The notes beneath the pieces were generated by a model. The model did no database searches, had not been told where the DNA came from, and saw only the letters and a list, made by a program, of their open reading frames with translations. A DNA stretch of 64,000 nt from Bacteroidaceae bacterium (GTDB taxonomy: Bacteria; Bacteroidota; Bacteroidia; Bacteroidales; Bacteroidaceae), in contig JAZRDQ010000008.1 in assembly GCA_045660365.1 (NCBI GenBank), positions 72,506 to 136,505 of the forward strand, in the 5' to 3' direction. A program made the translations under genes and the position numbers. Positions 3,074-33,998 of this stretch are shown here, in pieces (the stretch's first letter is position 1; each line of letters starts with the position of its first letter).

Positions 3074-3074
3074 T

Positions 3075-7710: not shown

Positions 7711-7721
7711 GCTGTACGGAT

Positions 7722-8822: not shown

Positions 8823-8834
8823 TTATAGAGAGAT

Positions 8835-9845: not shown

Positions 9846-9877
9846 ACCCCAAAAGTTAGACAAAAAACTTTTGGGGT
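9846..9877 (+). terminator. Perfect 12-bp stem-loop directly after paralog 1 (partial terminator or RNA-stability element)
   Basis: ACCCCAAAAGTT (9846-9857) pairs perfectly with AACTTTTGGGGT (9866-9877) across an 8-nt loop. It starts 1 nt after the TGA stop and has no U-tract. Confidence 0.5.
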
Positions 9878-9911
9878 CAGATCAATTAAAGTGCCTTAAA
9901 TAAAAAACAAT

Positions 9912-10892: not shown

Positions 10893-10933
10893 AAAGTAAA
10901 ACCGTAACATATATATAATAAGGAGAAACAATT

Positions 10934-11935: not shown

Positions 11936-11950
11936 AAAAAAAGACAAGAT

Positions 11951-12997: not shown

Positions 12998-13024
12998 AAT
13001 AATAATCCTGTAATAGATAAAACT

Positions 13025-14134: not shown

Positions 14135-14169
14135 TAAGTTTAAATTGCGAATAAATAAAACAGAAAAAT

Positions 14170-15192: not shown

Positions 15193-15363
15193 TTGCAAAG
15201 AGACTTATAGTACAAGCATTTTACAGAAGAATGCAGAAAGAATATTGATGTTGATTTTGGATGGACTTATGCCGATGAGGTTAGTAAATGACTAATTAAT
15301 TCGTAAAGTCAAGCCAGAAGGCATCAGAAGTCAGTGTAATAAAAAAGTATAAAAGTAAAAGAG

Positions 15364-16470: not shown

Positions 16471-16475
16471 TTGGT

Positions 16476-17534: not shown

Positions 17535-17547
17535 AATAGGATAGATA

Positions 17548-18597
17548 ATGAACAGATATATTGACAAAATATTCGGAAAGTGGTTACTACTAGCGCTGTT
17601 TATGGTGCTGGCAGTGGGCTGTGCACAGGAATTCGATGAATGGGATAATGGTGTAAAGATAGAGTTTACTACACCTCATCTGCAGGATTTACAGGTAGAG
17701 ACCAGAGCAGTTTCAGGATATAGTGGAACCATATCCGGTAGTTCAAGCATGGGTGTTTTTGTTAGGGGAATTGTGAATGAAAGTACCATTACTTACAATG
17801 GCAGCAGCTGGGAATCGTCACTTAAACTGGATCCTGCTACATATAATATCTATTCATACATACCAAAGCGTAGCGGTGTGTCATTTAATGCAACAGGCAG
17901 CTACCCTGTAATCACTTTTACAGACGTACCATTTATAACAGATCAGGAGATACTTATCTCTTCCGGTGCAGTAGCAGAAACAGTTACATCAGATGGCGGT
18001 GTTTTTACTCCAAACGACATAACTGGCAGCTTATCTAAAAACAGTTATTCAATACGGGTAGAATCGAAAGAGAACTCCAGGAACTATGTAACCTTTATGA
18101 TGGACAGGGTTATGGCAAAGGTAATCCTGAACTTTAAAGTTCACAGCAAGTATGATGCAATCAGAACTGTAAAGATTAAGAAGGTAACATTGCAGCCAAC
18201 CAGTATTGTTGATATAGCATGTACATTAACCGATAAGGAGATAACATATCAGGGAAGTTCCACACAGTCAGCAACCTTATCTCCATTGGTGTATGACCAT
18301 AGTGGATTTGAGGTAGAAACTGATGCTGATGATGCAAATCCATTTGCAACATTCTATAGTGTACCTGGTGTTGAAAGTACAGTTAAGATGACAGTGGTTT
18401 ATGATGTTTATGATAAGTCGGGTACTTTGATTCGTGCCGATCAGGAGGTTACCAATGCATCAATCAAACTAATAGAATCGGGTACGTTACAGCGTGCCAA
18501 AGAGTATAAACTGAATATAAATATTGTGCCAACATATCTCTATTCTTTAAGCGATACAGATAAGGAAAGTGTTATGTTGATACAGTACAGTAATTAA
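17548..18597 (+). CDS. Fimbrillin-like lipoprotein, paralog 9 (most divergent; possible adaptor or tip-type subunit)
   Basis: Lipobox AVGC. Blocks: IEFTT...ETRA, MDRVMAKVILNF, EYKLNINIVP. It lacks the YYWP block and the terminal EIxFxPxVxDW strand. Confidence 0.5.
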   Translation: MNRYIDKIFGKWLLLALFMVLAVGCAQEFDEWDNGVKIEFTTPHLQDLQVETRAVSGYSGTISGSSSMGVFVRGIVNESTITYNGSSWESSLKLDPATYNIYSYIPKRSGVSFNATGSYPVITFTDVPFITDQEILISSGAVAETVTSDGGVFTPNDITGSLSKNSYSIRVESKENSRNYVTFMMDRVMAKVILNFKVHSKYDAIRTVKIKKVTLQPTSIVDIACTLTDKEITYQGSSTQSATLSPLVYDHSGFEVETDADDANPFATFYSVPGVESTVKMTVVYDVYDKSGTLIRADQEVTNASIKLIESGTLQRAKEYKLNINIVPTYLYSLSDTDKESVMLIQYSN

Positions 18598-18610
18598 ATA
18601 GAAATATAAG

Positions 18611-21600: not shown

Positions 21601-24600
21601 TCATATAGCATCGCCTTCTACAAAAACAGATCAGATAAAAGGTGCTGTATATGGTGGCGGACAGGGATTCAGTGGTGCAACCGGTATAGTTGATGTAAAA
21701 GATACATACGTTCATCTGGCTGCTACAGGTACATATCAGGATCGTGTAACAAATGGTGCTGGCCCTTTGGTAAATAAGGTGTTTGGCGGAGCATACTATT
21801 CATACGTAGAGAAAACAACGGTTGATGCTGCAAGCGGATACTACAATGAGATATATGGAGGTACATTCGGCGCTACTCACAATGGCCTGCCAGTTGGTAT
21901 ATCCTATGACTGCGGAACTACAAATGTGAACATTTATGGTATGAATAATGCCAGTCTGAATGTTTATGGTGCAGGTGCAAAATCGGGTGCAACAACTACC
22001 AATGTTAAACTGTATGCGGGTAATATAGGTTATGCATACGGCGGATCTTTTGCTGAAGGTTATTGTGGTACAACAAATGTAACTATACCTGCAGGTTCTA
22101 CCATTACCGCAAAAGCTGTCTATGGAGGAAGTGTGGGCTCTGATGCTGGTTTGCCTTGTGATGTTGGACAATCTAATCTGACATTTGCATCAAATACTGC
22201 CTATATAACAGGCGAAGGCCTGTTTGGAGGTAACAAGAGCTATCGTGCTACACATAAAACCAATGTCAATATAACATCTCCTGTTCAGATAATGGCAGGT
22301 GAATATGCAAATGTATATGGTTCCGGACACGGTGAAAACACCATTACAGGTTTTGCAAAGGTTACACTATCAGATGGCGCACAGGTGGCTAATGTATATG
22401 GTGGCGCACTGGATGGTACTGTAAGATATGCATACGATGATAAATCGGGTGCACCAACATATTATGCAACTAATTTTGCTAAGTATGCGCACTGGGAATA
22501 TGAAGATCCTAAAACCGAATTGGAAAACAGAAATACCCGTATTATAATAGAAGAAGGTGCTACCGTTCAGGAGAATGTATTTGGCGGTGGCTATGGTGCT
22601 ACTGCTACGGTACATGGAGCAACAAGTGTAAGCCTTTTAGGAGGTATAGTAGAGGGCGATATTTATGGTGGTGGCTCTATGGGTAACATGGAACTGCTTG
22701 ACAAAGATAATGATGCAGGTAATAATATTCTCTCTATACTGGAAATATATGGTGGTAAGGTACGCCGAGTATTTGGTGGTGGCTTAGAAGGATATATAGA
22801 AGGTGAAACAGATGTACAGATAGGATTGCGCCAACAGGTTGAAGGCGGTAAGATTACCGACAAGGTGTATGCTTTGAATTCTAATAATTTAGTTGAAGCA
22901 GATATCGATTGGGGAAAACCTGCAGTTCTTCGTTCAGCGTATGGTGGTGGTGAACGCGGTAAAGTAACCAATACCAATATTACCATGAATAACGGTTATG
23001 TAGGTTACGATTACGATTATAAAACAGAAAAATATTTTCCGAACGTAAAACTACACAGTCAGGACGATCTGAATCTGCTTGCCAATAATGGTAACCTTTA
23101 TGGTGGTGGCTTTGGTGACGAGGCCTGGACAGTGAACACTCAGGTAACAATGTATGGTGGAAAAATCCGTCACTCACTTTATGGTGGTGGTGAAATAGCT
23201 TCGGTAGGTTTTGCCCCTATGAAGGTAGATGACGGAGTAGTTAAAGAGGTAGATTGGACTAGAACTGGAGAGATTACAGAAGGTAGTACTAAGGTAACAA
23301 TGTATGGCGGTACAGTAGAACGTGATGTATTTGGTGGTGGCCGTGGATTCAGTTATACACTGGCAGGTGCGTTAGAGGTTGAAAACGTATTCTATTCAAG
23401 TGGTTTTGTGTTTGGTAAGACCGAGGTCTATCTGCATCGCGGAACAGTTGGAACCGATGAAACTCTTAAAGACGAAGCAGGAAACGTATTTGGTGGCGGT
23501 AATATTGGTTATGTCTATTCTGTTAAGGGTAAAAAGAATGGTTACTCTCAGCAATTTACCACAGGACACTATTATGATAGAGAAGGAAAATATACAGAAG
23601 ACTGTAAGGTTCTTATCACTCCGGTAACAGTAGCTTTGGAGGATATAACAATAGGATCCAAATCATATAAAGCAGGCGATTTTGTTCCATGTTCCGATTT
23701 GAATACGCTCTATGCTAACGACTCAAGATGGAAGCAGATGGATGAACAGGGTGTTACAGTACGTAATGCAGTCTTTGCCGGTGGTAATGTAATTCAGGGT
23801 ACCGATATTATGACTGCCGATGTAAAGACCGTATTTGGTAATGTAACAGCATCAGTAGTGGATGTATTTGATTGCGATATGGTATCTGTAAGTACCGATA
23901 ATATCGGTGGTTTCTATGGAGATGGTAACTTAAGTCTTGTAGATGGTTACAGAGAACTGAATATAACTAACTATGGCACTGACTATCATAATCTTACACA
24001 TGAAATTACATACGATGATTACCAGAAAATGCATGCAAGAAAGAAAGCATATTATGAACTGAAATATCTATGTCTGGAAGCTCATGATTATAAAGATAAG
24101 AACAATAAAACACACTACTATGTAGAGGGTGATCAGATATCCGGTTCTGTATGGGGCAGCATGCCTGCAGAAGAACAGGCAAAGTGGAAACTTGCAGGTC
24201 TGGCAACACTATACGCAGGCAGAATGATTAACACCATACAGCGTGCCGATTTCTGTGGTGTTGTGGGTAGCAGAGTGGTGTTAAAGGGTGCACGTGATCG
24301 TGAAACAACTACTGCCGACTTTACCATGTACACCATTAACCGTCTGGATGAACTTTCACTGAATGAAGTTAAAACATATCCTATAGCCGGTTATAACCCT
24401 GATGGAACAAAAGACCATGGTTGTTACTTTGGTATATACAATGTGGTGAACTATTTAGGAGCAGTATCTTCCAACCTTAATTATTATACTGATGTTCGTA
24501 AAACACACAGTACAGAAGATATTTATAAGCCAGATCCAGAGAACCAGGATGAAACTTATTATGAATATAAGATGCGTCAGGCAGGAACAAAATTCCGTAA

Positions 24601-27600
24601 TAATGGTGAAAGTTCAAATATAATTGCACTTGCAGGTGGTGTATGGCTTGAAGTTGTAAGATCAATAAATGAACAGACAGGCAAAAAGGATTATGGACCT
24701 ATTACAGGTGTTATCCAGCTTGATCTTATAAATGTAGCACCTGGCGAGGGTGGTGGATATGTGTATGCCAAGAATATCCACGGAAAAAGAACACCTTCCG
24801 GTGAAGTGAACGTTACATTGGCCGAATCCAACAAAGATGCGGTATCGTACAAACTACATAAATATTCAGATGATCAGACTGAGCCATATGCATCATCCGG
24901 TAACTTTGTACATAGCCAGAAGCAGATTGTAGATGATTGCTATCCAAATAACGGCGATAAGAGTTCGCCTGCACACTATTGGTATGTACGTGGCGATTTC
25001 TACGTATATAACCAGACAATCTCTGCATATACCGGTACACCGCAGGCATATTCAGAGGATGTATCAATTCCTTTAACTATCACAGCAGGTGCAAATGGCA
25101 GACTGGAATTACTTGATATCTCCAAAAACTACTATGCATACTATACCGGATTGAATTATGGAGGCAGAGAACTGACTGCAGACGATTCTGTAAGAATTGG
25201 CGGACAGTATTACCATACCAACGATCCTATCAGCAGCTGGGATTATGAAAGACTTGCTACTCCTGAACAGGCCTTCTTTGTAGAGGAGACTTACGTATGT
25301 ATAGACGATGTGGTAAATATTGATGGGGAAGCAAAAGATTCTGAAGGCAGAGATCTGGGTGCGCTTGCGCTTGCATACAGGAAAGGCGATGTAATACTTC
25401 CGGCTAAGTTACAGGAACTGAAGGATTCAACTGTCAGGATTAAGATTCATGATCCGAATGCAAATACTGCCGATGCAACCCAGCTGGTTCCAGTATCCTA
25501 TTTCTTCCATCCAACAAACAATATGAGTAAGGATGAAGGATTCCTGCTTACATTCAAAATTAATAACCCTGCAGTATGGAATGATTACTATACACAGGCA
25601 TCGGGTGCTCCAAACCAGATTAGCTTAGCAACATATAATGATGGTAAAACCAATAAGGAACTATATGTGTCAGGTCCGTCGTTCTTGAATACAACAGGTG
25701 GTATATATGGACAATATACATATAATGCCGGCGATATTATAGATGATGAAGTATATAATGAACAGCAGAATTTGCTGAAGGATGCTACGGATAAGGGAGT
25801 GGCATCTCCAACCGGACAGGCTGTATTTGAAATAGCATACGTGGCAACAGAAAATGTACATGTTAATACCTCCAATGGCAATGGTGGTGAAACAGATATG
25901 TATATTACTGAAGGTAACGTAATTTCAAAAACAGATTATGATAGAGCCAGCAATGAAAAGATACGAAGGCATTTTGAAAAGGCAGTATTGTGTACACAAA
26001 CATTCGAATTTGCTCCGGAAGAGTGGTACTATTATGGTGATATATTGCAGCAGTCTGAATTTGATAAGCTGAATGCATCTGATAAAAAGAATTTCTCTGT
26101 CAATACATGGCTCTGTACCGCTACAGGTAATTTTGGTGGTCACCTGTTTATAGTGCAGAACAGTTATGATGCACTGCAATATGCGGGAGTCCAGCCGGAT
26201 GAGCGTAAGAATTTCTCTTTTAATAAAGATGCTCTGGATTTGTTGAGTACCAATTTCTCAAAAGATCTGCATGGATACGATCCGTCTGCAAATTATGATC
26301 CTAATACAGAAAACGATGGCTATCGTTACAGCAATCCTACAAGAGTTGATTATACAGCGGTTTATAATGGTACAGGTCTGGGTGTTTCCGGTCTGGGAAT
26401 ATCAGATATAGATGGCAACCCATTGGAAGTAATCAGTAAAGGCACAAAACTGAACAATGTGAATTATGAAAAGCTTCCGAATGAGAAGATGAACTTTGCT
26501 CTGGTAAATGTAACCGATGAACATCTGCGTGTTGATAACAATGCAGAGCCACCTAAAGCAAAGAATACATTCTATGTGGTTAAGAAGACATTTAAGGTTG
26601 GCGATGTTTATTATGCAAGGGGCAGAGTGCTTACCGACACAGAATTTACTAAATTACCGGTTGATGATAATGTGAGGAATAATAATGTAATGCATTATAC
26701 ATTCAATTCACAAGGAACTTATTATGTATGTCTGAATGATTTCAGCAACCAGCAGAAACTAATAAAGATTAATCCTGAGAGTGATGGTTCATATAATAGT
26801 GCAAACAATAATAATAAAGCTGATGTTGCTGCAGGAACCATAAAAGAAGGAACTGTTATTACAACCACTTCGTACGCAGAGAACGTAGTGAATATGCAGA
26901 CTAACTTCTCTGTTCAGGGAACTATGCCTACAGAAACATCAACGCTGTATGTTCCAAGAAGTGCCGATGTAAGAGACCTGTCGGAAGATAAGATAGTAAC
27001 AGTTGTATATAAGTATTCTTATCTGGAGAGCGATCTGGCAGGTAACAACTTTGAAGAGATAGTAGAACGTCATATTGTAAATATCAGGGTACACTTTGAG
27101 AGTGGTGTGCCTAAGATTGGCGATCTGCAGACTCCTCAGACAGTATTGCCTGGCGAAGTACTTGGTATGAACACACCTCCTGTAACACCTGGTGCTTACG
27201 AAATTATGGGTGGTGGATTTGAGATCTTTGCTAACGAACAGGATGCATTTGCTCATAAGAATGGTGTTGCATATCAGCAGGGACGTGCTCCACTATACTG
27301 GTATCAGAATGAATACTGGATAGCATACTATGCAAAGACATACTTAGGTAAAACTTATTCAAATCCGGTAAGATTATCCGTTGCCAACTATCATAGACTG
27401 AAAGATGTACTTGAACATCCGGAATATATGTATGTGGATTCTATAACTGATACATATTCAAATAAACCTGCAATGTTGCGTAATCCAAAGATTTACATAA
27501 ATAATGATGTGTTTACAGCAAAAGTAGGTGATGAGGAGAAACAATTTAATGAGTTTGACTACCTGATTAAGTTGTATAATGAACATTTGCATATTGGAAA

Positions 27601-30016
27601 AGATTATGTGCCAGATCCAAATAATAAGCCTGACAGGTATATAAATGGTCAGATACAGTATGCCAAGAATCTGGAATTTATATTGCAGAGTGATGTGGAA
27701 CCATTATACTATAAAGATAAAGACTGGACACTTGGCGGTGATGGTGATAACTGTTTCCAGGGTAATCTGCATGGTGATGGTTACACCATAAGTGGTTTGA
27801 CCCACTCATTGTTCAATAAGCTATGCGGTAATGTATATAACTTAGGTGTTACCGGTTCATTTACAGGTGCAGGTATATCAGACAACGGAGGTGCAGTATA
27901 TAACAGTTGGATTTCAACAACCGGAATTACAACTACTGCTCCGATAATTGCAGATGGTGGCTCTGCTGTCAATTCATATTACAACAGCATACAGTACACT
28001 GGTAGTTATGCTAATGGTGCTACAGCAGCCACAACACGTGAATTTACTGATGGTACAGTAGCCTATAACCTGAATGGATACTATCAGCAGAAGCGCAATG
28101 ATATATCGGCAGGTAAAAAGCGTGATGGTTCCGATGGAGCATATCTGCAGAATAATGGTCTGTCTGTATTACCATCATTGCAGAGTATTGCAGCTACTGC
28201 CACATCAGCTAAGTATGGAAATTCGGATTATGTGGAAGAGCGTATGAAAAGTGGTGATTTCCGTTACGAAAAGGGTGAAGTTCCATACCGTGTAGGCGAA
28301 ATCAGATTTATAGAGGGTAATCCTGATCAGGGCACTGCTGCGAAATTTGTACCTCTGTATCCGGATGATTATATCTTCTTTGGACAGAACCTAACATACG
28401 GTTTAAGTCAGAGTAAAGACCATGATAACCTGCCTGACAGAGTTGCAAAGCGTACCTATAACTATTCAAGGACTGTAGAAGATGTAACTACAAACTATCA
28501 GCCGGAACTGATAGATGCAACAACAGTTGCCGATAACCGTGTATTCCGTGTTCCGGTTTATACAACGCAATCTCCAACAGCAGTAGCAGGTGGTGTTCAC
28601 TACAACAGAGATGCTGTATTTACAGATACCTATAACGCAATTGTTATGGACAGAGATGTAACAGCAATTGACTTTACAGGTAATGCGAGTGCAAGTGACG
28701 CATTGTTTGAAAACAGCCTGCTGGATATGCCTGAGCTACGCAGCTTCTACCTGAAGGGTCTTACAAAGAACCTGTTGGTATATGCTGAAGCAGGAGGAGA
28801 GGCAACTTATAAACTGCTTGACGAAGCTGCTAAGGAACCTGAACTTGATATTCAGCAGAATAACTATAATTCTGTTGACAGAATTGTACAGGAGCCTATG
28901 TTCCATCTGGTAGGTAAACAGATTAATGGAGAATACAGAGCAACATCTGACCACTTTATTGTGGATAAACAGAACTTTGCAGCACCAATATCATATAGCT
29001 TTAATGATAACTACTATATGTGGTATCAGCGCGACCCAGCTTACCATGCCAATAGTAGTTCAGATGGCTGGGAAGGTTTGATTCTTCCATTTACTGCCGA
29101 TCTGGTGACTACACAGGACAAGGGTGAAATAACTCACTTCTATGGAGATTCTGATAAGGGGCATGAGTATTGGCTGCGTGGCTTTACAGGAATATCAGAT
29201 GCTAAAGCACAGTTTGCCCGTCCACAGGAAGGTGCTGGCTATGCAAAGTATGAAGATCATAATGGAAATAATCCATATAGAGTGAGCAATAGTTATCTGT
29301 ATGACACATATTACAGTAAGAACAGCAGAAACGATAAAAACAGTGATAAATACTTTGAGTATTACAATGGTACACGTGAATATTCAGATTACCTGCTGAC
29401 TACTCAGAATATGCCATATATTGTGGCTTATCCTGGTGTGGCATACTATGAATTTGATATGTCAGGTAAATTTGTTCCAGGGAATACTGCAACACCTGCT
29501 CCGGAAGAACTGGATAAGCAGATAGTAACCTATGTCTCTGTAGCTAATCAGGTAATTCCTGTATATAATGCGTCAGGTCTGGTAACATCTGCAGGTGGAT
29601 ATACATTGTATGGTTCTTATCTGAATACCGACATTGCAGATGCAGATTACAAAGTTGATGCAACAGGTGCCGGATTTGAACGTGTGCAGAATTCCGATGT
29701 GGCTGTACCATTCCGTGTATATCTGAAGAAGAACGGATCTGCAGCACCAACCAGAGGAAATGTTCTTGATTATATTCCAATAAGTGGCAGTGAAGATTAT
29801 ATAGCAGAACAGGCACCATTGAAGGGATTGAATATCTATGGCAGGAACAATGTAATATACATAGAATCTGCTCTTGACTATGAAACTATGGTTACAATAT
29901 ATTCAACATCGGGACAGATTATTGCAAGAGTGAAGGTGGCTCCGGGAACTACGGTAAAAGTGCCTGTTAATGCAAATGGAGTATATATTGCAAATAGACA
30001 GAAGATAGTTATATAA
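18611..30016 (+). CDS. Giant (3801 aa) secreted GG-repeat (predicted parallel beta-helix) surface protein with a T9SS-type C-terminal sorting domain
   Basis: One uninterrupted 11.4-kb ORF starting 13 nt after paralog 9, with a Sec signal (LLLTLSVVCSMPLQA). Dozens of V[YF]GGG-centred repeats run from about nt 18725 to about 23930. A non-repetitive central region follows. Near 27751-27960 there is a GLUG-like stretch (FQGNLHGDGYTISGL...NLGVTGSF). The last about 70 aa (LNIYGRNNVIYIES...VTIYSTSGQIIARVKVAPGTTVKVPVNANGVYIANRQKIVI) look like a type A T9SS CTD. Confidence 0.8.
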   Translation: MNISTNRKQKTLLARVLRPLLLTLSVVCSMPLQALVIKGDVYGGGKEGMVGVEGTPAQTDVDINSGEVRTVFGGGQDGKVYGTTSVDVTGGTIGAEKFNGSLYGGVYGGGEGAEATVFGTANVNMTAGTVVNNIYGGGKMAALQGNTNVKISGGTVSGSVFGGACMADIQGRTYVWINGGADALNIGAVYGGNDISGNVSSYLSVVTNPYTIPVAAIANDDNWKNWNAFVRVTKGAGEVNIGSLYGGGNGDYGYVGTEGNYSITLKDFAPNGTETTRILTVSNRPTLGRVLVDVTGGTFNAIYGGGNNATVTFSTDIYLNGANLTATNVFGGNNKAVMAIRPTWHLHDATITNLYSGGNRGDMTSPSGLLLAIESAYLTIENVYGGCRMANVSPTATPGAETYTATGGKSISFDGGYAARVYIGGGKVKNVYGGNDISGKVNYGANVEIYSSISGSIYGAGNGAYLYTDNPANSSSDLYYIKGGNSVAALYDYRPQVEKTLLHIAGPVNDDGTPTENPLYVAGNVFCGGNSAPLKSDDTNATTQFRIGKNVVINGVFLGSNGEQMVDPEVLKYYADNANSSIDLTDSDQMKGYMDGVSVNLKPSFSVDWKEELTPDQTGTYIGSLYLGGNVGSLTATEQIDVTIPSSITIYEKIVGGSNNAIVAANSGINAEYVGGVTETSSGDYKLKMTVASRMEPKTLNATLDGEGYVTSASLVWKKSAPSGLAEEIISGANIYGGCYQSGVVNGNVIIDVTDNLISQNIISKNLHKYNSGSTAIGEYVFTNAISVFGGGYGANSTINGNTTINLKENAQVLKVFGGGELGAVTGNTSINLDKNLKQPAEGFYNAFKVYGGGLQGNVGGTASVNVQGGKFFDVFGGSCFADITGTAKVVIGSAESVGSQTPLLIANNVYGANDFGGTIGGSVSFGQLAYGGKYVMAQTMVQYISGVINGNIFGGANGAYDYAWQFSKINMEGKYPLLNKEITENNASFITSNTFVHIASPSTKTDQIKGAVYGGGQGFSGATGIVDVKDTYVHLAATGTYQDRVTNGAGPLVNKVFGGAYYSYVEKTTVDAASGYYNEIYGGTFGATHNGLPVGISYDCGTTNVNIYGMNNASLNVYGAGAKSGATTTNVKLYAGNIGYAYGGSFAEGYCGTTNVTIPAGSTITAKAVYGGSVGSDAGLPCDVGQSNLTFASNTAYITGEGLFGGNKSYRATHKTNVNITSPVQIMAGEYANVYGSGHGENTITGFAKVTLSDGAQVANVYGGALDGTVRYAYDDKSGAPTYYATNFAKYAHWEYEDPKTELENRNTRIIIEEGATVQENVFGGGYGATATVHGATSVSLLGGIVEGDIYGGGSMGNMELLDKDNDAGNNILSILEIYGGKVRRVFGGGLEGYIEGETDVQIGLRQQVEGGKITDKVYALNSNNLVEADIDWGKPAVLRSAYGGGERGKVTNTNITMNNGYVGYDYDYKTEKYFPNVKLHSQDDLNLLANNGNLYGGGFGDEAWTVNTQVTMYGGKIRHSLYGGGEIASVGFAPMKVDDGVVKEVDWTRTGEITEGSTKVTMYGGTVERDVFGGGRGFSYTLAGALEVENVFYSSGFVFGKTEVYLHRGTVGTDETLKDEAGNVFGGGNIGYVYSVKGKKNGYSQQFTTGHYYDREGKYTEDCKVLITPVTVALEDITIGSKSYKAGDFVPCSDLNTLYANDSRWKQMDEQGVTVRNAVFAGGNVIQGTDIMTADVKTVFGNVTASVVDVFDCDMVSVSTDNIGGFYGDGNLSLVDGYRELNITNYGTDYHNLTHEITYDDYQKMHARKKAYYELKYLCLEAHDYKDKNNKTHYYVEGDQISGSVWGSMPAEEQAKWKLAGLATLYAGRMINTIQRADFCGVVGSRVVLKGARDRETTTADFTMYTINRLDELSLNEVKTYPIAGYNPDGTKDHGCYFGIYNVVNYLGAVSSNLNYYTDVRKTHSTEDIYKPDPENQDETYYEYKMRQAGTKFRNNGESSNIIALAGGVWLEVVRSINEQTGKKDYGPITGVIQLDLINVAPGEGGGYVYAKNIHGKRTPSGEVNVTLAESNKDAVSYKLHKYSDDQTEPYASSGNFVHSQKQIVDDCYPNNGDKSSPAHYWYVRGDFYVYNQTISAYTGTPQAYSEDVSIPLTITAGANGRLELLDISKNYYAYYTGLNYGGRELTADDSVRIGGQYYHTNDPISSWDYERLATPEQAFFVEETYVCIDDVVNIDGEAKDSEGRDLGALALAYRKGDVILPAKLQELKDSTVRIKIHDPNANTADATQLVPVSYFFHPTNNMSKDEGFLLTFKINNPAVWNDYYTQASGAPNQISLATYNDGKTNKELYVSGPSFLNTTGGIYGQYTYNAGDIIDDEVYNEQQNLLKDATDKGVASPTGQAVFEIAYVATENVHVNTSNGNGGETDMYITEGNVISKTDYDRASNEKIRRHFEKAVLCTQTFEFAPEEWYYYGDILQQSEFDKLNASDKKNFSVNTWLCTATGNFGGHLFIVQNSYDALQYAGVQPDERKNFSFNKDALDLLSTNFSKDLHGYDPSANYDPNTENDGYRYSNPTRVDYTAVYNGTGLGVSGLGISDIDGNPLEVISKGTKLNNVNYEKLPNEKMNFALVNVTDEHLRVDNNAEPPKAKNTFYVVKKTFKVGDVYYARGRVLTDTEFTKLPVDDNVRNNNVMHYTFNSQGTYYVCLNDFSNQQKLIKINPESDGSYNSANNNNKADVAAGTIKEGTVITTTSYAENVVNMQTNFSVQGTMPTETSTLYVPRSADVRDLSEDKIVTVVYKYSYLESDLAGNNFEEIVERHIVNIRVHFESGVPKIGDLQTPQTVLPGEVLGMNTPPVTPGAYEIMGGGFEIFANEQDAFAHKNGVAYQQGRAPLYWYQNEYWIAYYAKTYLGKTYSNPVRLSVANYHRLKDVLEHPEYMYVDSITDTYSNKPAMLRNPKIYINNDVFTAKVGDEEKQFNEFDYLIKLYNEHLHIGKDYVPDPNNKPDRYINGQIQYAKNLEFILQSDVEPLYYKDKDWTLGGDGDNCFQGNLHGDGYTISGLTHSLFNKLCGNVYNLGVTGSFTGAGISDNGGAVYNSWISTTGITTTAPIIADGGSAVNSYYNSIQYTGSYANGATAATTREFTDGTVAYNLNGYYQQKRNDISAGKKRDGSDGAYLQNNGLSVLPSLQSIAATATSAKYGNSDYVEERMKSGDFRYEKGEVPYRVGEIRFIEGNPDQGTAAKFVPLYPDDYIFFGQNLTYGLSQSKDHDNLPDRVAKRTYNYSRTVEDVTTNYQPELIDATTVADNRVFRVPVYTTQSPTAVAGGVHYNRDAVFTDTYNAIVMDRDVTAIDFTGNASASDALFENSLLDMPELRSFYLKGLTKNLLVYAEAGGEATYKLLDEAAKEPELDIQQNNYNSVDRIVQEPMFHLVGKQINGEYRATSDHFIVDKQNFAAPISYSFNDNYYMWYQRDPAYHANSSSDGWEGLILPFTADLVTTQDKGEITHFYGDSDKGHEYWLRGFTGISDAKAQFARPQEGAGYAKYEDHNGNNPYRVSNSYLYDTYYSKNSRNDKNSDKYFEYYNGTREYSDYLLTTQNMPYIVAYPGVAYYEFDMSGKFVPGNTATPAPEELDKQIVTYVSVANQVIPVYNASGLVTSAGGYTLYGSYLNTDIADADYKVDATGAGFERVQNSDVAVPFRVYLKKNGSAAPTRGNVLDYIPISGSEDYIAEQAPLKGLNIYGRNNVIYIESALDYETMVTIYSTSGQIIARVKVAPGTTVKVPVNANGVYIANRQKIVI

Positions 30017-30040: not shown

Positions 30041-30081
30041 AAAAATCCTCGGTTCACTTCATAATGGACCGAGGTTTTTTT
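30041..30081. terminator. Bidirectional intrinsic terminator between the convergent giant gene and the GT2-Stealth gene
   Basis: CCTCGGT (30047-30053) pairs with ACCGAGG (30068-30074). An A-run lies upstream and a T7 run downstream (30075-30081). Confidence 0.65.
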
Positions 30082-31870
30082 ACTTTTCAAAACAGCTTTT
30101 GTTAGGGAAACAGGATTGGAGAAATTCTACCATTCTCCTGCGGTCGCTGTCGGTAGTGCCTTCACCATCGTTCATACATACCATCAGAGGCTTGTATTTC
30201 TTTAGAACATAATTGTAATCTTTTGTGTTGACAGGAATACAGCGTGAATAGGATGAGGCCTTTTTCATAATAGCTCTGCCAGTGGCTATCATATAGTATC
30301 CTATGTAGCTTCTGTGCATATCGGAGTCGTTACGGAAACGGCTGTACGATGTTTTGCTCCATTCCTGTGTATGGCAACTGGCTATACACTCCCTGATAAT
30401 GCTTTTAGAGTACAGGTCAAAACAGTGGTGTGGCGCATACTGAATCTTCTTTCCATATTCTTCTGCAATAAGATTCTGCATTCTGTCAATTTTTATGGCG
30501 TAATTACCTTTACGCTTTGCCTTACGTTTGTTGAAACGGTGGCTGTTCAGACGGACAACAGGACGTCCGTCTTCAGAAAAGAGATCTTCTGCCCCTAAGT
30601 TTCCTGTAAAAAACATATCATCATTTCCCAGAAAGAAATATTCACTCAGTTCATCTATGTTGCAGGTGCTGTTCTCTATTGCTGTGGAATTGAAGGTGGG
30701 CAGAGCATCGGCCGGCAGTATCTGATTGTGATTGACCAGAACAACTTTTGGGTGTGTGGTATCAAGCCATTCAGGACACTGACCATCTGTTACTATAAAT
30801 ATGCGGTTAATCCATGGGGCAAATTTTTCGATGGAACGGAGTGAATACTTCAGTTCATCGTTCTCTATCCATCGTGCCTCAATGGTTCCCTGATTTTTAG
30901 TTGCACTGCCTAAGTATCTGTCACGTTTGGCCTGCCATGCGGGGTCATTGCCATCTACCCACATATAGACTATATCTACGGGAGTGGTTATCCTGCTTTT
31001 TGCAGGGGCTTTCCAGAAATATAGCGGTATGGCGTCAAAAAGCCGCAGGGTGCGCCTGTTATTCTTCTCTTTTATCTTCCACAGACAGATGCCACAAACG
31101 GTGTTATGGCTTACTGTGATATTTCTCTCTTTATTGGGTATAGTCAATCCGTTTGCTGATGCGTAGTCAACCATCGATTTATGTGCCTGATACTTCTGTA
31201 GCTGTTTGGAGCGGGTCTGTTTTGATTTTACCGTAGAACTGCTGTTCAGTACATATCTGTAGAATAGATCCGGTACTGTAACCAGTCTGCCGCTTTCACA
31301 GATGGCGCGGAATACAAACATTACATCTTCATACTGAACTCCTTCAGCAAATCTAAGCCCTGTGCGTTCCAGCATCTCTCTGCGATACAGTTTATTTACC
31401 GGATGAAATTCAGGTGGGCATTTGCAGATTTTCAGCTTATCATCAGTTGTAGTTATAACTTTGCTCTCCCTGAATTCAATGACTGTTCTGTTACCACCCG
31501 GTTTCTCCTTTATTATCCCGCAGATAGCTATATCGGCATTCGCTGTTTTTGCTGCGTTGTACAGGGTTTCAAAATAGTTGGCGGGGATATAGTCATCACT
31601 ATCTATCATTCCTATATATTCGCCACGTGCAATAGCCATTGCTGCATTTCTTGCTTTACCCTGACGGCCATTTTGCTGATGAATGACTGTTATGCGGCTG
31701 TCTCTCTTTGCCCACTCATCCAGAACCTGCGCCGAATGGTCTGTTGAACCATCGTTTACACATATTATCTCAGTGTCTGTAAGTGTCTGCTCTGTGACAC
31801 TCTGCAAACAGCGTGGCAAAAGTTCCGCTGTGTTATATACGGGGATTATTATGCTTACCTTTGCTGACAT
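30080..31870 (-). CDS. Bifunctional glycosyltransferase family 2 / Stealth-family (hexose-1-phosphate transferase-like) fusion protein
   Basis: 596 aa. The N-terminus is GT2-like (VSIIIPVYNTAELLPRCLQSV...ICVNDGSTDHS). The C-terminal half carries Stealth CR1 (VDIVYMWVDGNDPAW), CR2 (NDELKYSLRSIEKFAPWINRIFIVTDGQCPEWL...LPTFNSTAIE...LGNDDMFF), CR3 (YAPHHCFDLYSK) and CR4-like (MVCMNDG). Confidence 0.8.
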   Translation of the reverse strand: MSAKVSIIIPVYNTAELLPRCLQSVTEQTLTDTEIICVNDGSTDHSAQVLDEWAKRDSRITVIHQQNGRQGKARNAAMAIARGEYIGMIDSDDYIPANYFETLYNAAKTANADIAICGIIKEKPGGNRTVIEFRESKVITTTDDKLKICKCPPEFHPVNKLYRREMLERTGLRFAEGVQYEDVMFVFRAICESGRLVTVPDLFYRYVLNSSSTVKSKQTRSKQLQKYQAHKSMVDYASANGLTIPNKERNITVSHNTVCGICLWKIKEKNNRRTLRLFDAIPLYFWKAPAKSRITTPVDIVYMWVDGNDPAWQAKRDRYLGSATKNQGTIEARWIENDELKYSLRSIEKFAPWINRIFIVTDGQCPEWLDTTHPKVVLVNHNQILPADALPTFNSTAIENSTCNIDELSEYFFLGNDDMFFTGNLGAEDLFSEDGRPVVRLNSHRFNKRKAKRKGNYAIKIDRMQNLIAEEYGKKIQYAPHHCFDLYSKSIIRECIASCHTQEWSKTSYSRFRNDSDMHRSYIGYYMIATGRAIMKKASSYSRCIPVNTKDYNYVLKKYKPLMVCMNDGEGTTDSDRRRMVEFLQSCFPNKSCFEK

Positions 31871-32742
31871 ACTGTTGCACTATTATATGCCAATGATAGG
31901 TCTATCATATTGCCAAACAGTAGGTCTGATTCCGGCAGTCTCTTTGTGTCATATCCGCTTGCAGGGAAGAAGGTCATCTCTCCAAAATAGATTTTGCCAT
32001 CCACATTGTAGAAATCCACTCTTACAAATGGTATTCCCTTTGACAGTTCTGAAGCCAGTTCAAACATCTTCTCCATATTTGACGGTTTGGGCAGAGTGAA
32101 TCCTTCCGGAGCCTCTTTGCCTCTTTTGTTGTAGCGTTTCAGATTCCATTCTCTGTCAAAGAAGTAGAATTTGGGGCTTCCGGCCTGTCGGTCTATGCAT
32201 AGCAGAACAGCATCTACGCTGCCGTTGTAGCAGTAGAATTTGTAGTCAACCAGATCGTCGCCCAGATACATTTCTGCAAAGATGCGTTTCTTTACATTCT
32301 TGTATGGCCACTCTCTGTAGTTGCGGTGCAGGTCAGTACGCAGTGATTTGTTCAGCTTATTGATGGTCTCTTCCATGTTCAGATTGTTCTTGTCCTTGCA
32401 TATAATGACACCCTTATTGCCACCGCTGTGGTTAGTTTTTAGTACAAACTGCTGTGGAAGTGTCTCCAGATCTATATCATTTGTACTGTTCCAGACAGCA
32501 AGTGTGGGTACTATATATTTTGCACCTATTCTGGCTGCTATGTATCCTTTTACATCAATCTTGTCAACAATGGTGGTGTACTCCGGTCTTCTGTTGTACA
32601 GTTTCAGCCATTGCAACTTTTCATTCATTGTAACGGGGTTCTTCAGATTGAGCTTTTTACCTGTCTCAATCTTGTACATCCACTTAACGAATTGTCTGTC
32701 CGGAATTATCGGGCTGAATTTTCTAAGCAAATTGCGTCTCAT
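31855..32742 (-). CDS. TupA-like ATP-grasp amidoligase family protein
   Basis: 295 aa. NEKLQWLKLYNRRPEYTTIVDKIDVKGYI, FVLKTNHSGGNKGVIIC and VRVDFYNVDGKIYFGEMTFFPASG fit the ATPgrasp_TupA pattern. It overlaps the downstream gene by 16 nt and the upstream gene by 4 nt. Confidence 0.75.
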   Translation of the reverse strand: MRRNLLRKFSPIIPDRQFVKWMYKIETGKKLNLKNPVTMNEKLQWLKLYNRRPEYTTIVDKIDVKGYIAARIGAKYIVPTLAVWNSTNDIDLETLPQQFVLKTNHSGGNKGVIICKDKNNLNMEETINKLNKSLRTDLHRNYREWPYKNVKKRIFAEMYLGDDLVDYKFYCYNGSVDAVLLCIDRQAGSPKFYFFDREWNLKRYNKRGKEAPEGFTLPKPSNMEKMFELASELSKGIPFVRVDFYNVDGKIYFGEMTFFPASGYDTKRLPESDLLFGNMIDLSLAYNSATVCQQR

Positions 32743-33818
32743 TCTATTGCATCTTTAATGTCCTGAACTGTAACATTGTCCTTGCCAAGAAGGTACTGTA
32801 TGGTTCGGGCGTTCTCTCTGAAATCAGTTTTTAGCAGTGCTGAAGCAAGTGCAAGTATTCCCTCCTGGATGGATGTATCCAGCCCCAGTATCCTGCCTAT
32901 GGAAATGTACAGGCCCAATCCCATTGGAACATCTTCCAAAAGGTATCTGTGATTTACAAATGATGGTCCTTTGTTTGATGAATCGGCAAACGATTTAAAT
33001 ACTGTCATTGCGTCAATATCCAGATTCTCTTCATTTCTCCATTTTGCCGCTTCAAAATAGTCCAGAGGTTTGCAACCGAACGCCTGGAGCATCTTGTTCT
33101 TCTCTACGTCGAAAGATTTGATTACGTTTACTACGGAATCTGTGAATGCCTCTTTATACATCCAGAATTCACCCTTGCTGTACTCTATTCTGGATGCAGA
33201 GAAGAGTATTCCTATAGGGTGTACAATCATATTTGGATTATGTATGGCAGATTCCAGAATGTTCTGTCTCAGATATTTTGTGTTTGGGAAACAACCGGAA
33301 AGCAGGGAAATTACCCTCTGCTCCTCTCTTTTTGGCCATGCCGATACTGCATTTCTTGGGTTGTAAAAACTAATTCTTACATATTCGGAATTCATTATTC
33401 TGCCATTGTATGCAGTGGTTTCCCATTCGCTGTATGTTACGTTCTGCTTAATGTATTTCCTGAAGATCAGACTTCCTAAATAGCCCGGAGTGAGGCAGAT
33501 AAGCTGACCTTCCTTTACGTATGGAGCTATCAGTGCTGCTATCTGTTCGTGTTGCAGGGTTGTGGTCATCACCATGATAATATCTGCAAACTCTACAGCA
33601 ACTTTTGCCTCTCTTGTAATGATGGCCGGCTGAGCAAAGTATCGGTTTCCATTGTTGGTGTCGTCCAATACATTATAACCACCATCGGATACTATTTTGT
33701 CAAAGAATTGACTGTTTGTTGCAGAGGTCTTTAAAAGTGCCACTTTATGACCGAACTCAATCAATTTTGCTGCGTGTATCAATCCTGCATTTCCGCAACC
33801 GATAACAGTTATATTCAT
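32739..33818 (-). CDS. NAD(P)-dependent octopine/nopaline (opine) dehydrogenase-family protein
   Basis: 359 aa with a Rossmann motif NITVIGCGNAGLIHAAKL. The C-terminal block NPNMIVHP...HRYLLEDVPMGLG is characteristic of the opine dehydrogenase family. Confidence 0.7.
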   Translation of the reverse strand: MNITVIGCGNAGLIHAAKLIEFGHKVALLKTSATNSQFFDKIVSDGGYNVLDDTNNGNRYFAQPAIITREAKVAVEFADIIMVMTTTLQHEQIAALIAPYVKEGQLICLTPGYLGSLIFRKYIKQNVTYSEWETTAYNGRIMNSEYVRISFYNPRNAVSAWPKREEQRVISLLSGCFPNTKYLRQNILESAIHNPNMIVHPIGILFSASRIEYSKGEFWMYKEAFTDSVVNVIKSFDVEKNKMLQAFGCKPLDYFEAAKWRNEENLDIDAMTVFKSFADSSNKGPSFVNHRYLLEDVPMGLGLYISIGRILGLDTSIQEGILALASALLKTDFRENARTIQYLLGKDNVTVQDIKDAIE

Positions 33819-33931
33819 ATTGCAAAAGCTTTTCTCTTTTTAATGTTTATGACGCAAATTTCGGAATATTTATTGACTTCTGCTAACAATTCATAATAAA
33901 TGTATCTCCGCGCGTAAACCATTGGAGCTAA

Positions 33932-33966
33932 TTTGTTGTATCTTACAATGATAATTCGTATATTTG
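33932..33966 (+). promoter_or_regulatory. Candidate pnp promoter (TTTG ... TATATTTG)
   Basis: An exact TAnnTTTG lies at 33959-33966, 33 nt before the pnp ATG. TTTG lies at 33932-33935; the 23-nt spacer is slightly long. Confidence 0.4.
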
Positions 33967-33998
33967 CCACAATTTACTTATTTATACGTTTTTAAAAG

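Follow-up and report, generated by a model that had tools for sequence, protein, structure and literature searches.

Stealth proteins are hexose-1-phosphate transferases that carry the conserved regions CR1–CR4 (PMC5974469, PMC10668966). The known members, such as the meningococcal serogroup A and X polymerases, M. tuberculosis CpsY, and GNPTAB, have the CR1 motif VDIVYMW, CR2, a CR3 arginine, and a C-x-ND motif in CR4, and they are expected to transfer hexose-1-phosphate from UDP-hexose and thereby form a phosphodiester (PMC5974469, PMC10668966). The characterized Stealth polymerases are described as single-domain proteins, and those that build capsules as a single protein require no partner glycosyltransferase (PMC5974469); their genes lie in ABC-transporter (group 2) capsule loci. 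In CpsY, the CR3 arginine R419 is essential; in vitro phosphotransferase assays of this enzyme supplied UDP-GlcNAc and glucan as its substrates (PMC10668966). The CslB/TagF-like poly(oligosaccharide-phosphate) polymerases, from which glycosidic and phosphodiester bonds are predicted to be made by one polypeptide, have an N-terminal GT-A domain and a phosphotransferase module that is GT-B-like or TagF-like and explicitly not Stealth (PMC5974469).

The TupA-like ATP-grasp enzymes (PF14305) include WemR of Proteus mirabilis and the C-terminal domain of Cj1438 from Campylobacter jejuni HS:2, which occur beside GT2 enzymes in surface polysaccharide loci. The latter, Cj1438C, is a proven uronic-acid amidoligase that turns the C6 carboxylate of glucuronate into an amide (PMC11800379); it is fused to a GT2 domain and works with an aminotransferase, a decarboxylase, and a phosphatase for serinol or ethanolamine phosphate. 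Another TupA-like enzyme, CfmP, modifies Klebsiella fimbriae (PMC13419641). Opine dehydrogenases, such as CENDH of Arthrobacter (1bg6) and octopine dehydrogenase, are known from the catabolism of opines, from anaerobic metabolism in muscle, and from metallophore (CntM-type) clusters. Providencia O-antigens contain N-(1-carboxyethyl)-lysine and alanopine (PMC10609480). Pneumococci have a CDP-2-glycerol gene set, Gtp1/2/3 with WchX (PMC1391919).

The locus compared here with these systems lies in a stretch of 64,000 nucleotides, referred to as the window. Its host is an uncultured Bacteroidales of the ruminant gut, with matching records in the MAG RGIG9871 (yak rectum) and GCA_045587305.1. Three minus-strand ORFs, all three starting with ATG, encode an opine-dehydrogenase (ODH)-family NAD(P)H oxidoreductase of 359 aa as the first gene (32739..33818), a TupA-like ATP-grasp ligase of 295 aa (31855..32742), and a GT2-Stealth fusion protein of 596 aa (30080..31870). 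The TupA-like and ODH genes overlap by 4 nt (ATGA), and the GT2-Stealth and TupA-like genes overlap by 16 nt; coordinates and overlaps agree exactly with the preliminary description. The trio is a real and probably co-transcribed unit. Its presumed promoter is the divergent 180-bp stretch that separates the ODH gene from PNPase (33819..33998); a promoter-box scan found an exact Bacteroidetes-type TAnnTTTG box on the PNPase side and only a one-mismatch box, GAAATTTG, on the trio side, approximately 40 nt upstream of the ODH ATG. At the other end, sequence inspection revealed a hairpin (30047..30074) whose 10-bp stem has an A-run on one side and a T-run on the other, which is likely a bidirectional terminator common to the trio, whose stop begins at 30080, and a convergent giant gene, whose stop codon ends at 30016. 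A TM/signal scan predicted no TM segments or signal peptides in the trio proteins.

The GT2-Stealth protein joins an N-terminal GT2 (GT-A) domain (aa 6–169; 31364..31855, minus strand) to a Stealth domain (aa 297–596; 30083..30982, minus strand), unlike the single-domain Stealth polymerases. The former matches Glycos_transf_2 (PF00535) with 134.8 bits, above the Pfam cut-off, has GalT1 5hea and 3bcv among its PDB matches, and contains a DSDD (DxD) motif in which D90, D92, and D93 are invariant across nine homologues. The Stealth domain had been called complete from CR1 to CR4, of which CR1 (43.4 bits), CR2 (131.0 bits), and CR4 (30.6 bits) each exceed their own Pfam cut-off, but CR3 (PF17102) is sub-threshold when its segment is scanned alone (18.7 bits against 24.2); its key arginine is kept as the invariant R513, the equivalent of CpsY R419. 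The alignment of the Stealth half with CpsY (PDB 8j2n; 2e-41) spans its full extent, and the second top PDB match is the GNPTAB catalytic domain (2e-30). CR1 reads VDIVYMWVDG, CR4 reads CMND in contrast to CLND or CIND in known Stealth transferases, and the CR3–CR4 spacer is approximately 21 residues shorter than in the closest relatives. The N-terminal GT-A domain is shared with the CslB/TagF-like polymerases; as the phosphotransferase module of the window protein is Stealth, any such resemblance would be functional convergence.

The TupA-like protein matches ATPgrasp_TupA (PF14305) with 187.8 bits, which passes the Pfam cut-off. The fold of its AF2 model (pLDDT 92.7) matches carboxylate-amine ligases, the best PDB matches being D-Ala-D-Ala ligases, LysX/ArgX, PsnB, and RizA. 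Orthologues of 62–84% identity are common among gut Bacteroidales, and some are named 'ATP-grasp fold amidoligase family protein' by NCBI. In contrast to Cj1438C, the window protein stands alone and is partnered by an ODH-family enzyme, and unlike in the Cj1438 and WemR systems, there is no uronic-acid gene close by.

The ODH-family protein passes the Pfam cut-off for Octopine_DH (PF02317; 102.3 bits) and also has an ApbA-type Rossmann domain. All four domain calls of the preliminary description (GT2, Stealth, TupA, and Octopine_DH) are thus upheld. It aligns over its full length with the true opine dehydrogenase CENDH (2.5e-33), and H200, R291, and E295-D296 align with the HP...RYxxED motif of that enzyme and are invariant or near-invariant in 26 diverse members of the ODH subfamily. 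Both domains, the histidine, and RYxxED are thus held in common with known opine dehydrogenases, from which the window protein differs by an identity below 30% (by eye) and by its context of glycan loci beside amino-acid ligases. Plasmid-borne relatives are only 25–29% identical.

The ODH subfamily has 433 relatives in the genome collection, and the best 80 of the 433 are nearly all from gut Bacteroidales, the close relatives being located in capsule loci. Among the 67 ODH loci of at least 12 kb, 53 have an ATP-grasp ligase within 8 kb of the ODH gene, compared with none of 38 control GT2 loci, whereas cytidylyltransferases are not enriched (7/67 against 6/38); the controls, GT2 loci of mixed taxa, are crude, and the seeds used for ATP-grasp came from the ODH loci themselves. 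These counts favour an amino-acid or opine decoration, with predicted substrates, over a CDP-polyol pathway. One recurrent type of ODH locus that lacks an ATP-grasp gene has a FemAB/Acetyltransf_6 gene in place of the ligase. A tight block of ODH, two ATPgrasp_ST genes, and TupA is found in two unrelated Wzx/Wzy loci, one (L177–L180) with UDP-sugar dehydrogenase, 2-epimerase, and PGA_cap genes and the other (L181) with two M14 peptidase genes.

What stays constant across sister strains is GT2-Stealth, the core of the locus; the genes upstream of it are allelic, interchangeable cassettes. Orthologues of GT2-Stealth (98, 66–68, and 51% identity) keep the position adjacent to PNPase and diverge fast, being 51–66% identical while PNPase is 94–99% identical. 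The cassette of the first ODH (ODH-A) and TupA is present in the window, L001, L011, L012, L013, and L172. L002 and L003 have DegT, a LAL-type ATP-grasp enzyme, a second ODH (ODH-B, 30% identical to ODH-A), and two further genes, so that two non-orthologous ODH and ATP-grasp pairs occupy one cassette position. In L004, GT2-Stealth stands alone beside PNPase without a cassette. Distant homologues (36–39% identity) stand by themselves, with XRE-type regulators, integrases, or restriction-modification genes as neighbours, and ODH with TupA is widespread in other loci without Stealth. The trio is not an obligate unit.

A surface-glycan locus that varies between strains has the trio as its promoter-proximal half; in the window, a 24-kb fimbrial cluster splits this locus in two. 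The companion unit (1106–6115, minus strand) begins with a Wzx-like MOP flippase of 496 aa and approximately 11 TM segments (4625..6115; PF01943/PF13440, Wzx_EPS weak), followed by a KpsF/KdsD-like sugar-phosphate isomerase of 199 aa with only an SIS domain (3995..4594; KdsD 2.8e-52, kpsF subfamily 9.4e-49, both below the cut-offs), a PfkB-family sugar kinase of 307 aa (3075..3998; PF00294, 115.5 bits; best NCBIfam matches fructokinase-like and IolC-like, all below the cut-offs), and an LtaS-like (sulfatase-fold) membrane phospho-alcohol transferase of 664 aa with five N-terminal TM segments (1106..3100; PF00884, 100 bits; weak matches to LtaS and phosphoglycerol transferase models). The isomerase matches span only the first ~150–200 of the 268–328 positions in the KdsD/KpsF models, and its C-terminal (CBS) part is therefore taken as absent. 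In L013 and L172, whose PNPase is 98–99% identical to that of the window, ODH, TupA, GT2-Stealth, flippase, and SIS (and PfkB and LtaS-like) genes are contiguous on one strand. The orthologues of the companion unit are 77–88% identical there (flippase 77%, isomerase 84–88%; in L013, PfkB kinase 79% and LtaS-like protein 85%), and the flippase begins 50–200 bp past the GT2-Stealth stop, in contrast to the ABC-transporter setting of known Stealth polymerases. The trio, previously described as isolated from any larger capsule locus, is thus isolated only in the physical sense, with the companion unit 24 kb away. The flippase has its own promoter box (TAAGTTTG in the window) in all genomes examined, and so the two units may be neighbours yet independent.

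Between the halves in the window lies an Mfa-type fimbrial locus (6391..30016, plus strand) that is not part of the glycan module; it includes DUF3575, an Mfa2-like anchor, ten ORFs of ~330–370 aa in a run, and a 3801-aa protein. An orthologue of the giant gene (~3800 aa) is convergent to GT2-Stealth in L002–L004 and L011, but in L013 and L172 no fimbrial locus separates GT2-Stealth from the flippase. The adjacency is therefore polymorphic among strains and lends no support to the proposed modification of cargo or A-LPS. The convergence itself was described correctly; the label of T9SS cargo is weaker, as the sorting domain is sub-threshold (TIGR04183, 20.3 bits against 23) and a Pfam scan of the giant protein for such a domain gave no match.

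The whole account is put forward tentatively, with somewhat less than even confidence: a lipid-linked phosphodiester glycan with an opine-type amide decoration, flipped by the Wzx-like protein, with substrates predicted from sequence. GT2-Stealth, as a soluble protein, would extend a lipid-linked glycan at the cytoplasmic face, its GT-A domain adding a sugar from an NDP-sugar and its Stealth domain adding hexose-1-phosphate with release of UMP to form a phosphodiester, and repeated action may yield a poly(disaccharide-phosphate). The ODH and TupA-like pair would be a portable decoration module of a kind common in Bacteroidales Wzx/Wzy capsule loci. The amine would be made or completed by the ODH-family enzyme: a reductive condensation with a 2-oxo acid, driven by NAD(P)H, would yield an N-carboxyalkyl ('opine'-type) amino acid. 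The ATP-grasp enzyme would activate a carboxylate, most likely on an acidic sugar by analogy with Cj1438C, and link the amine to it as an amide. The Wzx-like protein would flip the product, the LtaS-like transferase may modify it further outside the cytoplasm, and a sugar-phosphate precursor would come from the KpsF-like isomerase and the PfkB kinase. The giant fimbrial/T9SS-type gene is a neighbour because a 24-kb locus sits within the glycan locus, and this is no evidence of a functional link. Among the window ORFs scanned, no initiating phosphoglycosyltransferase, Wzy, chain-length regulator, or exporter and no UDP-sugar dehydrogenase (uronic-acid gene) were found, so an acidic sugar, a lipid acceptor, and the place where the product ends up are assumptions of this account. 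The earlier interpretation, in which an opine is made and ligated to a sugar acid, is partly supported as a whole: the domain calls, the ligase neighbours and the two non-orthologous pairs agree with it, and its carboxylate acceptor stays putative, given the lack of a UDP-sugar dehydrogenase among the window ORFs scanned.

A different role for GT2-Stealth, as an add-on modifier rather than a polymerase, is rather unlikely. It would attach a single sugar and/or sugar-1-phosphate branch, bearing the amide decoration, to a glycan that other genes produce (LPS/LOS core, capsule, or a Bacteroidetes protein O-glycan), much as serotype-converting enzymes do. The lack of an initiating transferase, Wzy, Wzz, and exporter, both within the locus and across the scanned window ORFs, the lone GT2-Stealth of L004, the solitary distant homologues, and the activity of CpsY on glucan are consistent with such a role, for which GNPTAB, which decorates pre-existing glycans, is a precedent. 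However, a dedicated flippase and an LtaS-like enzyme adjoin it in L013 and L172, which suggests that the locus makes a lipid-linked product for itself. Single-protein Stealth capsule polymerases manage without a partner glycosyltransferase, and a disaccharide-phosphate repeat would call for just such a fusion of GT-A and Stealth.

It is improbable that the ODH-like and TupA-like proteins make a phospho-alcohol instead of an opine amide, by analogy with pneumococcal Gtp1 and Gtp3; the reductase would give a polyol, the ATP-grasp enzyme would phosphorylate it, and the product would enter a phosphodiester-rich, teichoic-acid-like glycan. In work of Wang and colleagues from 2010, Gtp1 is reportedly a ketone reductase and Gtp3 an ATP-dependent 2-kinase on a route to glycerol-2-phosphate. 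In L006–L010, a TagD-like cytidylyltransferase of 138 aa lies between an ODH (72% identical) and a TupA (63% identical), with a LicD gene in the locus and a similar set in L064; this order, with a small cytidylyltransferase in between, leaves room for the route, and the set is like gtp1-gtp2-gtp3 with wchX (reductase, ATP-dependent enzyme, cytidylyltransferase, and LicD-type transferase), a likeness in gene roles. A few ODH loci also have an IspD/TarI-like cytidylyltransferase immediately upstream, and the window locus is itself phosphodiester-oriented (Stealth, LtaS-like). Against this, the association is not general, as the neighbour counts show, with LicD rare; ORF domain scans of the window locus found neither cytidylyltransferase nor LicD, and in L006, TagD and LicD need no further partner for decoration with glycerol-3-phosphate. 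The ODH protein, moreover, keeps the His/Arg/Asp motif, including the carboxylate-binding arginine of opine dehydrogenases, and the TupA-like model matches ligases.

It is very improbable that the giant secreted/fimbrial protein next door, or an anionic LPS that anchors T9SS cargo, is a target of the trio: the recurrent convergence (window, L011, L002/L003, and L004), the fast evolution of both partners (giant protein 51–74%, GT2-Stealth 51–66% identity), the weak likeness of the giant C-terminus to a T9SS type A sorting domain, the CfmP precedent, and the linkage of Porphyromonas T9SS cargo via a uronic sugar bearing an amino acid would fit, but the genomes with the adjacency are all close relatives (PNPase 94–99% identical) and so represent one inherited arrangement and not independent evidence, L013 and L172 have the trio with neither a fimbrial locus nor the giant gene beside it, the trio proteins have no export signals, the sorting-domain match falls short, and ODH and TupA pairs elsewhere lie in ordinary capsule loci. 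With the opine-type amide decoration of a phosphodiester glycan as the preferred reading, the trio is a pointer to candidate genes for amino-acid ('opine'-type) decorations on bacterial sugars.

The trio consists of three minus-strand ORFs with ATG starts, namely, those for the ODH-family protein (32739-33818, 359 aa), the TupA-like protein (31855-32742, 295 aa), and the GT2-Stealth fusion (30080-31870, 596 aa). On re-reading the ORFs, these coordinates and the overlaps of 16 nt (GT2-Stealth/TupA) and 4 nt (ATGA, TupA/ODH) matched the preliminary description exactly. No membrane segment is predicted in any of the three proteins, suggesting a cytoplasmic location, and an NCBIfam scan found nothing specific beyond Pfam. 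Going by their profile matches, all three enzymes fall clearly within known families. One flank of the trio holds PNPase, a thioredoxin-like protein, GreA, and further housekeeping genes; on the other, a hairpin with a 10-bp stem flanked by an A-run and a T-run (30047-30074) separates it from the convergent gene of a giant 3801-aa protein. A 425-aa ORF with a TTG start (36121-37398, plus strand) overlaps the end of PNPase by approximately 120 nt; since its orthologue is called at 389 aa in the sister strains L011 and L002, the true start is probably downstream of the TTG. The records matching the window are GCA_045587305.1 and Bacteroidaceae bacterium RGIG9871 from yak rectum, which represent uncultured ruminant-gut Bacteroidales.

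The GT2-Stealth protein begins with a Glycos_transf_2 domain (PF00535, aa 6-169) that scores 134.8 bits against the Pfam cut-off of 23.3, and the nine homologues compared all keep its DxD motif, DSDD at aa 90-93, unchanged. The Stealth family (Sperisen 2005) is represented by the profiles PF17101, PF11380, PF17102, and PF17103. CR1 reads VDIVYMWVDG (aa 298-307), an IDVVYTF-like motif scoring 43.4 bits with PF17101 (cut-off, 27.2), in which D299, V301, Y302, and W304 are invariant in the nine homologues, and CR2 covers profile positions 1-106 of 108 of PF11380 at aa 333-437 (131.0 bits; cut-off, 39.4). The CR4 tetrapeptide is CMND (aa 565-568), known as CLND/CIND in the family, with 30.6 bits for PF17103 (cut-off, 27.4) and the invariant residues C565, N567, and D568 in the same homologues. 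CR3 is the sole weak point of the domain assignment, as PF17102 gave 18.7 bits with the segment scanned alone, below the cut-off of 24.2. The Stealth half nevertheless aligns end to end with the crystal-structure fragment 8j2n of the Stealth protein CpsY (2e-41) and also with the GNPTAB catalytic domain. In a phmmer alignment, R513, invariant in the nine homologues, faces CpsY chain residue 219, i.e., R419, which is essential by mutagenesis (PMC10668966). The window's protein is without approximately 21 residues of the CR3-CR4 spacer (aa ~540-545) that relatives of 66-68% identity possess; in CpsY, deletion of spacer S3 increased activity (PMC10668966). Stealth proteins transfer hexose-1-phosphate and thereby form phosphodiesters (PMC5974469, PMC10668966).

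The TupA-like protein matches PF14305 over profile positions 1-240 of 241 (187.8 bits; cut-off, 25). No solved structure matching it by sequence was found, and its AF2 model (pLDDT 92.7) resembles the structures of Ddl, LysX/ArgX, PsnB, and RizA (E around 1e-6), so that the modelled fold matches the ATP-grasp carboxylate-amine ligase type. Amide ligation to a sugar carboxylate has been demonstrated biochemically only for Cj1438C, the TupA-like domain of Cj1438, which amidates C6 of glucuronate (PMC11800379).

In the ODH-family protein, an ApbA-type Rossmann domain is followed by Octopine_DH (PF02317), scoring 102.3 bits (cut-off, 30). Residues 4-359 align with the opine dehydrogenase CENDH (1bg6, 2.5e-33), including the HP...RYxxED residues, and H200, R291, and D296, aligned with CENDH, are at least 90% conserved in 26 diverse subfamily members; this His/Arg/Asp set is presumably catalytic, going by the CENDH and OcDH structures. 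Opine dehydrogenases carry out the reductive condensation of an amine with a 2-oxo acid. The HMM scans thus bore out the domain calls first made by eye for GT2, CR1, CR2, CR4, TupA, and Octopine_DH, all above the Pfam cut-offs; of the complete Stealth domain called there, CR3 stayed below its cut-off.

Four further minus-strand genes, at 1106-6115, form a companion unit: a Wzx-like flippase with about 11 TM segments (4625-6115), a KpsF/KdsD-like SIS-only isomerase (3995-4594), a PfkB sugar kinase (3075-3998), and an LtaS-like sulfatase-fold membrane transferase with five TM segments (1106-3100). In two close relatives, L013 and L172, whose PNPase is 98.9% and 97.6% identical to the window's, orthologues of this unit (77-88% identical) follow directly after the trio on the same strand, with 50-200 bp between GT2-Stealth and the flippase. 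The trio of L013 is followed by the flippase, SIS, PfkB, and LtaS-like genes, and that of L172 by the flippase and the start of the SIS gene, where the contig stops. Because of this contiguity, the trio is, as judged from gene order, the leading half of a glycan locus of seven genes whose halves are parted in the window by a 24-kb fimbrial locus, which overturns the earlier view of the trio as isolated from any larger capsule locus. Since the flippase has its own TAnnTTTG box in all three genomes, the halves may be adjacent transcription units instead of one operon, and the flippase unit may be independent of the trio. These Bacteroidetes-type boxes were looked for by regex in place of a sigma-70 promoter scan, which was at chance (9 found vs. 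10.2 expected). GC3 ranges over 0.42-0.50 in the trio, with its maximum in the TupA-like gene, and is 0.40-0.42 in the flippase unit, 0.30-0.38 in the fimbrial genes, and 0.34-0.39 in housekeeping genes; the composition of the trio against its surroundings (0.30-0.42) marks no clear horizontal-transfer island, and the slightly raised GC3 of the trio and flippase unit hints weakly at a separate origin.

Relatives of the ODH-family protein at 62-86% identity are numerous, and the protein is much better conserved than GT2-Stealth. An exhaustive search gave 1909 representative clusters, including 91 with E-values below 1e-30, with the distant ones carrying metagenomic labels only, such as 'opine dehydrogenase'. 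The species-genome collection, searched with an alignment of eight ODH sequences, holds 433 relatives, of which the best 80 are nearly all from gut Bacteroidales MAGs; tblastn against plasmids returned only catabolic-type homologues of 25-29% identity. Apart from the loci that combine ODH with Stealth, the ODH loci are ordinary Wzx-type capsule loci with ODH commonly just upstream of the flippase, and ATPgrasp_ST, TupA-like and RimK-like ligases, PGA_cap, UDP-sugar dehydrogenases, and GT2 genes are its recurrent neighbours. Of the 67 loci that are 12 kb or longer, 53 have an ATP-grasp ligase within 8 kb of ODH, vs. none of 38 control loci, in a crude comparison with generic GT2 polysaccharide loci from metagenomes (the remainder of the GT2-Stealth scan). 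One recurrent locus type without ATP-grasp has in its place a FemAB/Acetyltransf_6 gene, of another amino-acid-adding enzyme family. TupA orthologues at 62-84% identity are abundant, often on ODH-bearing contigs, and a tight ODH-ATPgrasp_ST-ATPgrasp_ST-TupA block occurs in two unrelated capsule loci, one (L177-L180) with UDP-sugar dehydrogenase, 2-epimerase, and PGA_cap genes and the other (L181) with two M14 peptidase (M14 carboxypeptidase) genes. In the sister strain L002, ODH and ATP-grasp ligase are again paired, neither of them orthologous to its counterpart in the window, and an aminotransferase accompanies the two. These associations jointly point to an amino-acid-ligating enzyme as the constant partner of the ODH subfamily; as indirect evidence, co-location with amino-acid ligases fits an ODH-family protein that condenses an amino acid with a 2-oxo acid.

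Some Bacteroidales capsule loci (L006-L010 and L177-L181) carry between three and five ATP-grasp ligases drawn from different families, and PGA_cap (CapA-like) genes are present in L006-L010 and L177-L180, up to three per locus. Such multi-ligase loci with PGA_cap or M14 genes suggest peptide-bearing capsules.

N-carboxyalkyl amino-acid decorations are chemically known from Proteus O-antigens. They are found also in those of Providencia, as N-epsilon-(1-carboxyethyl)-lysine amide-linked to GalA and as alanopine on Qui4N (PMC10609480). The literature searched contained no paper assigning genes for opine-type amino acids amide-linked to sugars, and PF02317 enzymes were uncharacterised in it as a capsule-locus component, though common in such loci. 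It is tentatively proposed that a PF02317 enzyme with an ATP-grasp/FemAB-type ligase, a pairing found in many capsule loci of gut Bacteroidales, is the genetic basis of 'opine'-type glycan decorations, coupled here to a self-contained GT2-Stealth protein that builds a phosphodiester-linked, Wzx-flipped glycan. The ODH-like enzyme would make or complete an N-carboxyalkyl amino acid, the TupA-like enzyme would link an amine as an amide to a carboxylate on the glycan or its precursor, and GT2-Stealth would add a sugar and a sugar-1-phosphate onto a lipid-linked glycan, possibly in repeated rounds. The KpsF-like and PfkB proteins would supply sugar phosphate to the pathway, the Wzx-like protein would flip the product, and the LtaS-like enzyme may decorate it further. 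The window ORFs scanned include no uronic-acid (UDP-sugar dehydrogenase) gene.

Characterised Stealth polymerases are known from ABC-transporter capsule systems. No group 2 capsule export genes (KpsMT/KpsDE-type) were found among the window ORFs scanned, and in relatives a Wzx-type flippase adjoins, a setting that appears unusual for a GT2-Stealth fusion. The characterised Stealth polymerases are also described as single-domain, whereas the window's is fused to GT2 (PMC5974469). The CslB/TagF-like GT-A plus phosphotransferase polymerases are explicitly not Stealth, unlike this fusion (PMC5974469).

The locus beside PNPase varies in its cassette. ODH-A, TupA, and GT2-Stealth are present in the window, in the sister strains L001, L011, and L012, and in L013 and L172; the sister strains L002 and L003 have instead a DegT aminotransferase, an L-amino-acid-ligase-type ATP-grasp, ODH-B (30% identical to the window's ODH-A), a 622-aa protein, GT2, and GT2-Stealth, while L004 has GT2-Stealth by itself. 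The 622-aa protein (L002:7082-8950, also in L003), encoded between ODH-B and GT2, belongs to no Pfam family and has only a faint B12-binding-like N-terminus (E 0.037). Across these strains, identity remains at 94-99% for PNPase but declines for GT2-Stealth (to 66% and 51%) and for the giant protein (to 74% and 51%), the pattern usual for surface-antigen loci that diversify. More distant GT2-Stealth fusions (34-39% identical; L005 and L173-L176) are solitary genes, often near integrase or restriction-modification genes; a divergently oriented XRE-type HTH gene adjoins four of the five (L173-L176), with resolvase and integrase genes instead in L005. In L175, a homologue of NAGPA ('uncovering enzyme'-like phosphodiester glycosidase) lies about 6 kb from the fusion. 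The fusion architecture is common in metagenomes, where a scan with the GT2-Stealth alignment returned mostly generic GT2 motifs and, among the matches listed, a single genuine full-length relative, L092 (49% identical), which had none of the neighbour genes tested for.

Among the ODH-relative loci examined, an ODH gene is combined with Stealth only in the window's own species and L013, and the exact trio appears rare, being found in two related lineages only. The alternative cassettes and solitary homologues mean that the trio is not an obligate unit: GT2-Stealth occurs alone or with other cassettes, and ODH loci are mostly without Stealth. Conservation as a unit, for which the preliminary description had proposed a gene-neighbourhood check, was accordingly contradicted by L002/L003 and L004, and the trio is, on this comparison, one allele of a variable cassette with GT2-Stealth as its constant core, able to stand alone. 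The solitary homologues also favour GT2-Stealth as a single-addition, add-on modifier of a glycan made elsewhere, as does the absence of assembly genes, since the window ORFs scanned include no initiating transferase, polymerase, chain-length gene, or exporter; such a role is a possible explanation. The trio as an autonomous capsule locus was rejected for its lack of initiation, polymerase, and export genes.

It is improbable that the ODH/TupA pair acts in a Gtp1/Gtp3-like polyol-phosphate route of the pneumococcal CDP-2-glycerol (Gtp1-3/WchX) type. A TagD-like cytidylyltransferase and a LicD gene do accompany the pair in the loci L006-L010 and L064, but cytidylyltransferases are no commoner near ODH (7 of 67 loci) than in the same crude controls (6 of 38), and both genes are absent from the trio, the companion unit, and the other window ORFs scanned. 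Full-text literature searches returned no family assignment for Gtp1/Gtp3.

The intervening Mfa-type (type V pilus) locus (6391-30016, plus strand) comprises DUF3575, a DUF5119/Mfa2-like anchor, ten ORFs of ~330-370 aa at 8835-18597, and the 3801-aa protein; two of the ten ORFs were scanned, one being Mfa_like_1 and the other without a Pfam match. The giant protein has no Pfam domain, starts with a glycine-rich N-terminal repeat of the YGGG type, and matches the T9SS type A sorting domain below threshold. The whole locus is present or absent between strains with PNPase 98-99% identical. A role of the trio in modifying the giant protein or A-LPS, raised earlier from its position beside a supposed T9SS cargo, has a parallel in the TupA-like fimbria-modifying enzyme of Klebsiella (PMC13419641) but is very unlikely, as L013 and L172 have the trio with no giant gene beside it, the repeated adjacency is one arrangement common to close relatives, and the sorting-domain match is sub-threshold. 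Adjacency to this surface protein should be taken as an insertion polymorphism, not as functional evidence. A second fimbrial locus (43765-55110) contains DUF3575, DUF5119, and four Mfa_like_1 genes (362-624 aa); ahead of them stand two neighbouring regulator genes of the AraC family, encoded on the other strand (43765-46265).

Returning to opine-type decoration of a phosphodiester-linked glycan, the analysis provides a solid, testable lead for gut Bacteroidales glycan chemistry, with substrates that are predicted only. It documents clearly that, between strains approximately 99% identical in housekeeping genes, a surface-glycan locus has diversified by exchange of cassettes. If true, the proposal would describe a Stealth assembly route distinct from the ABC-transporter capsule systems studied so far, and it would offer testable gene candidates for opine-type glycan decorations whose structures have long been known. 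If the reading is right, many capsules of Bacteroidales from gut and rumen, which affect phage susceptibility and host immune recognition, may carry opine-type decorations.
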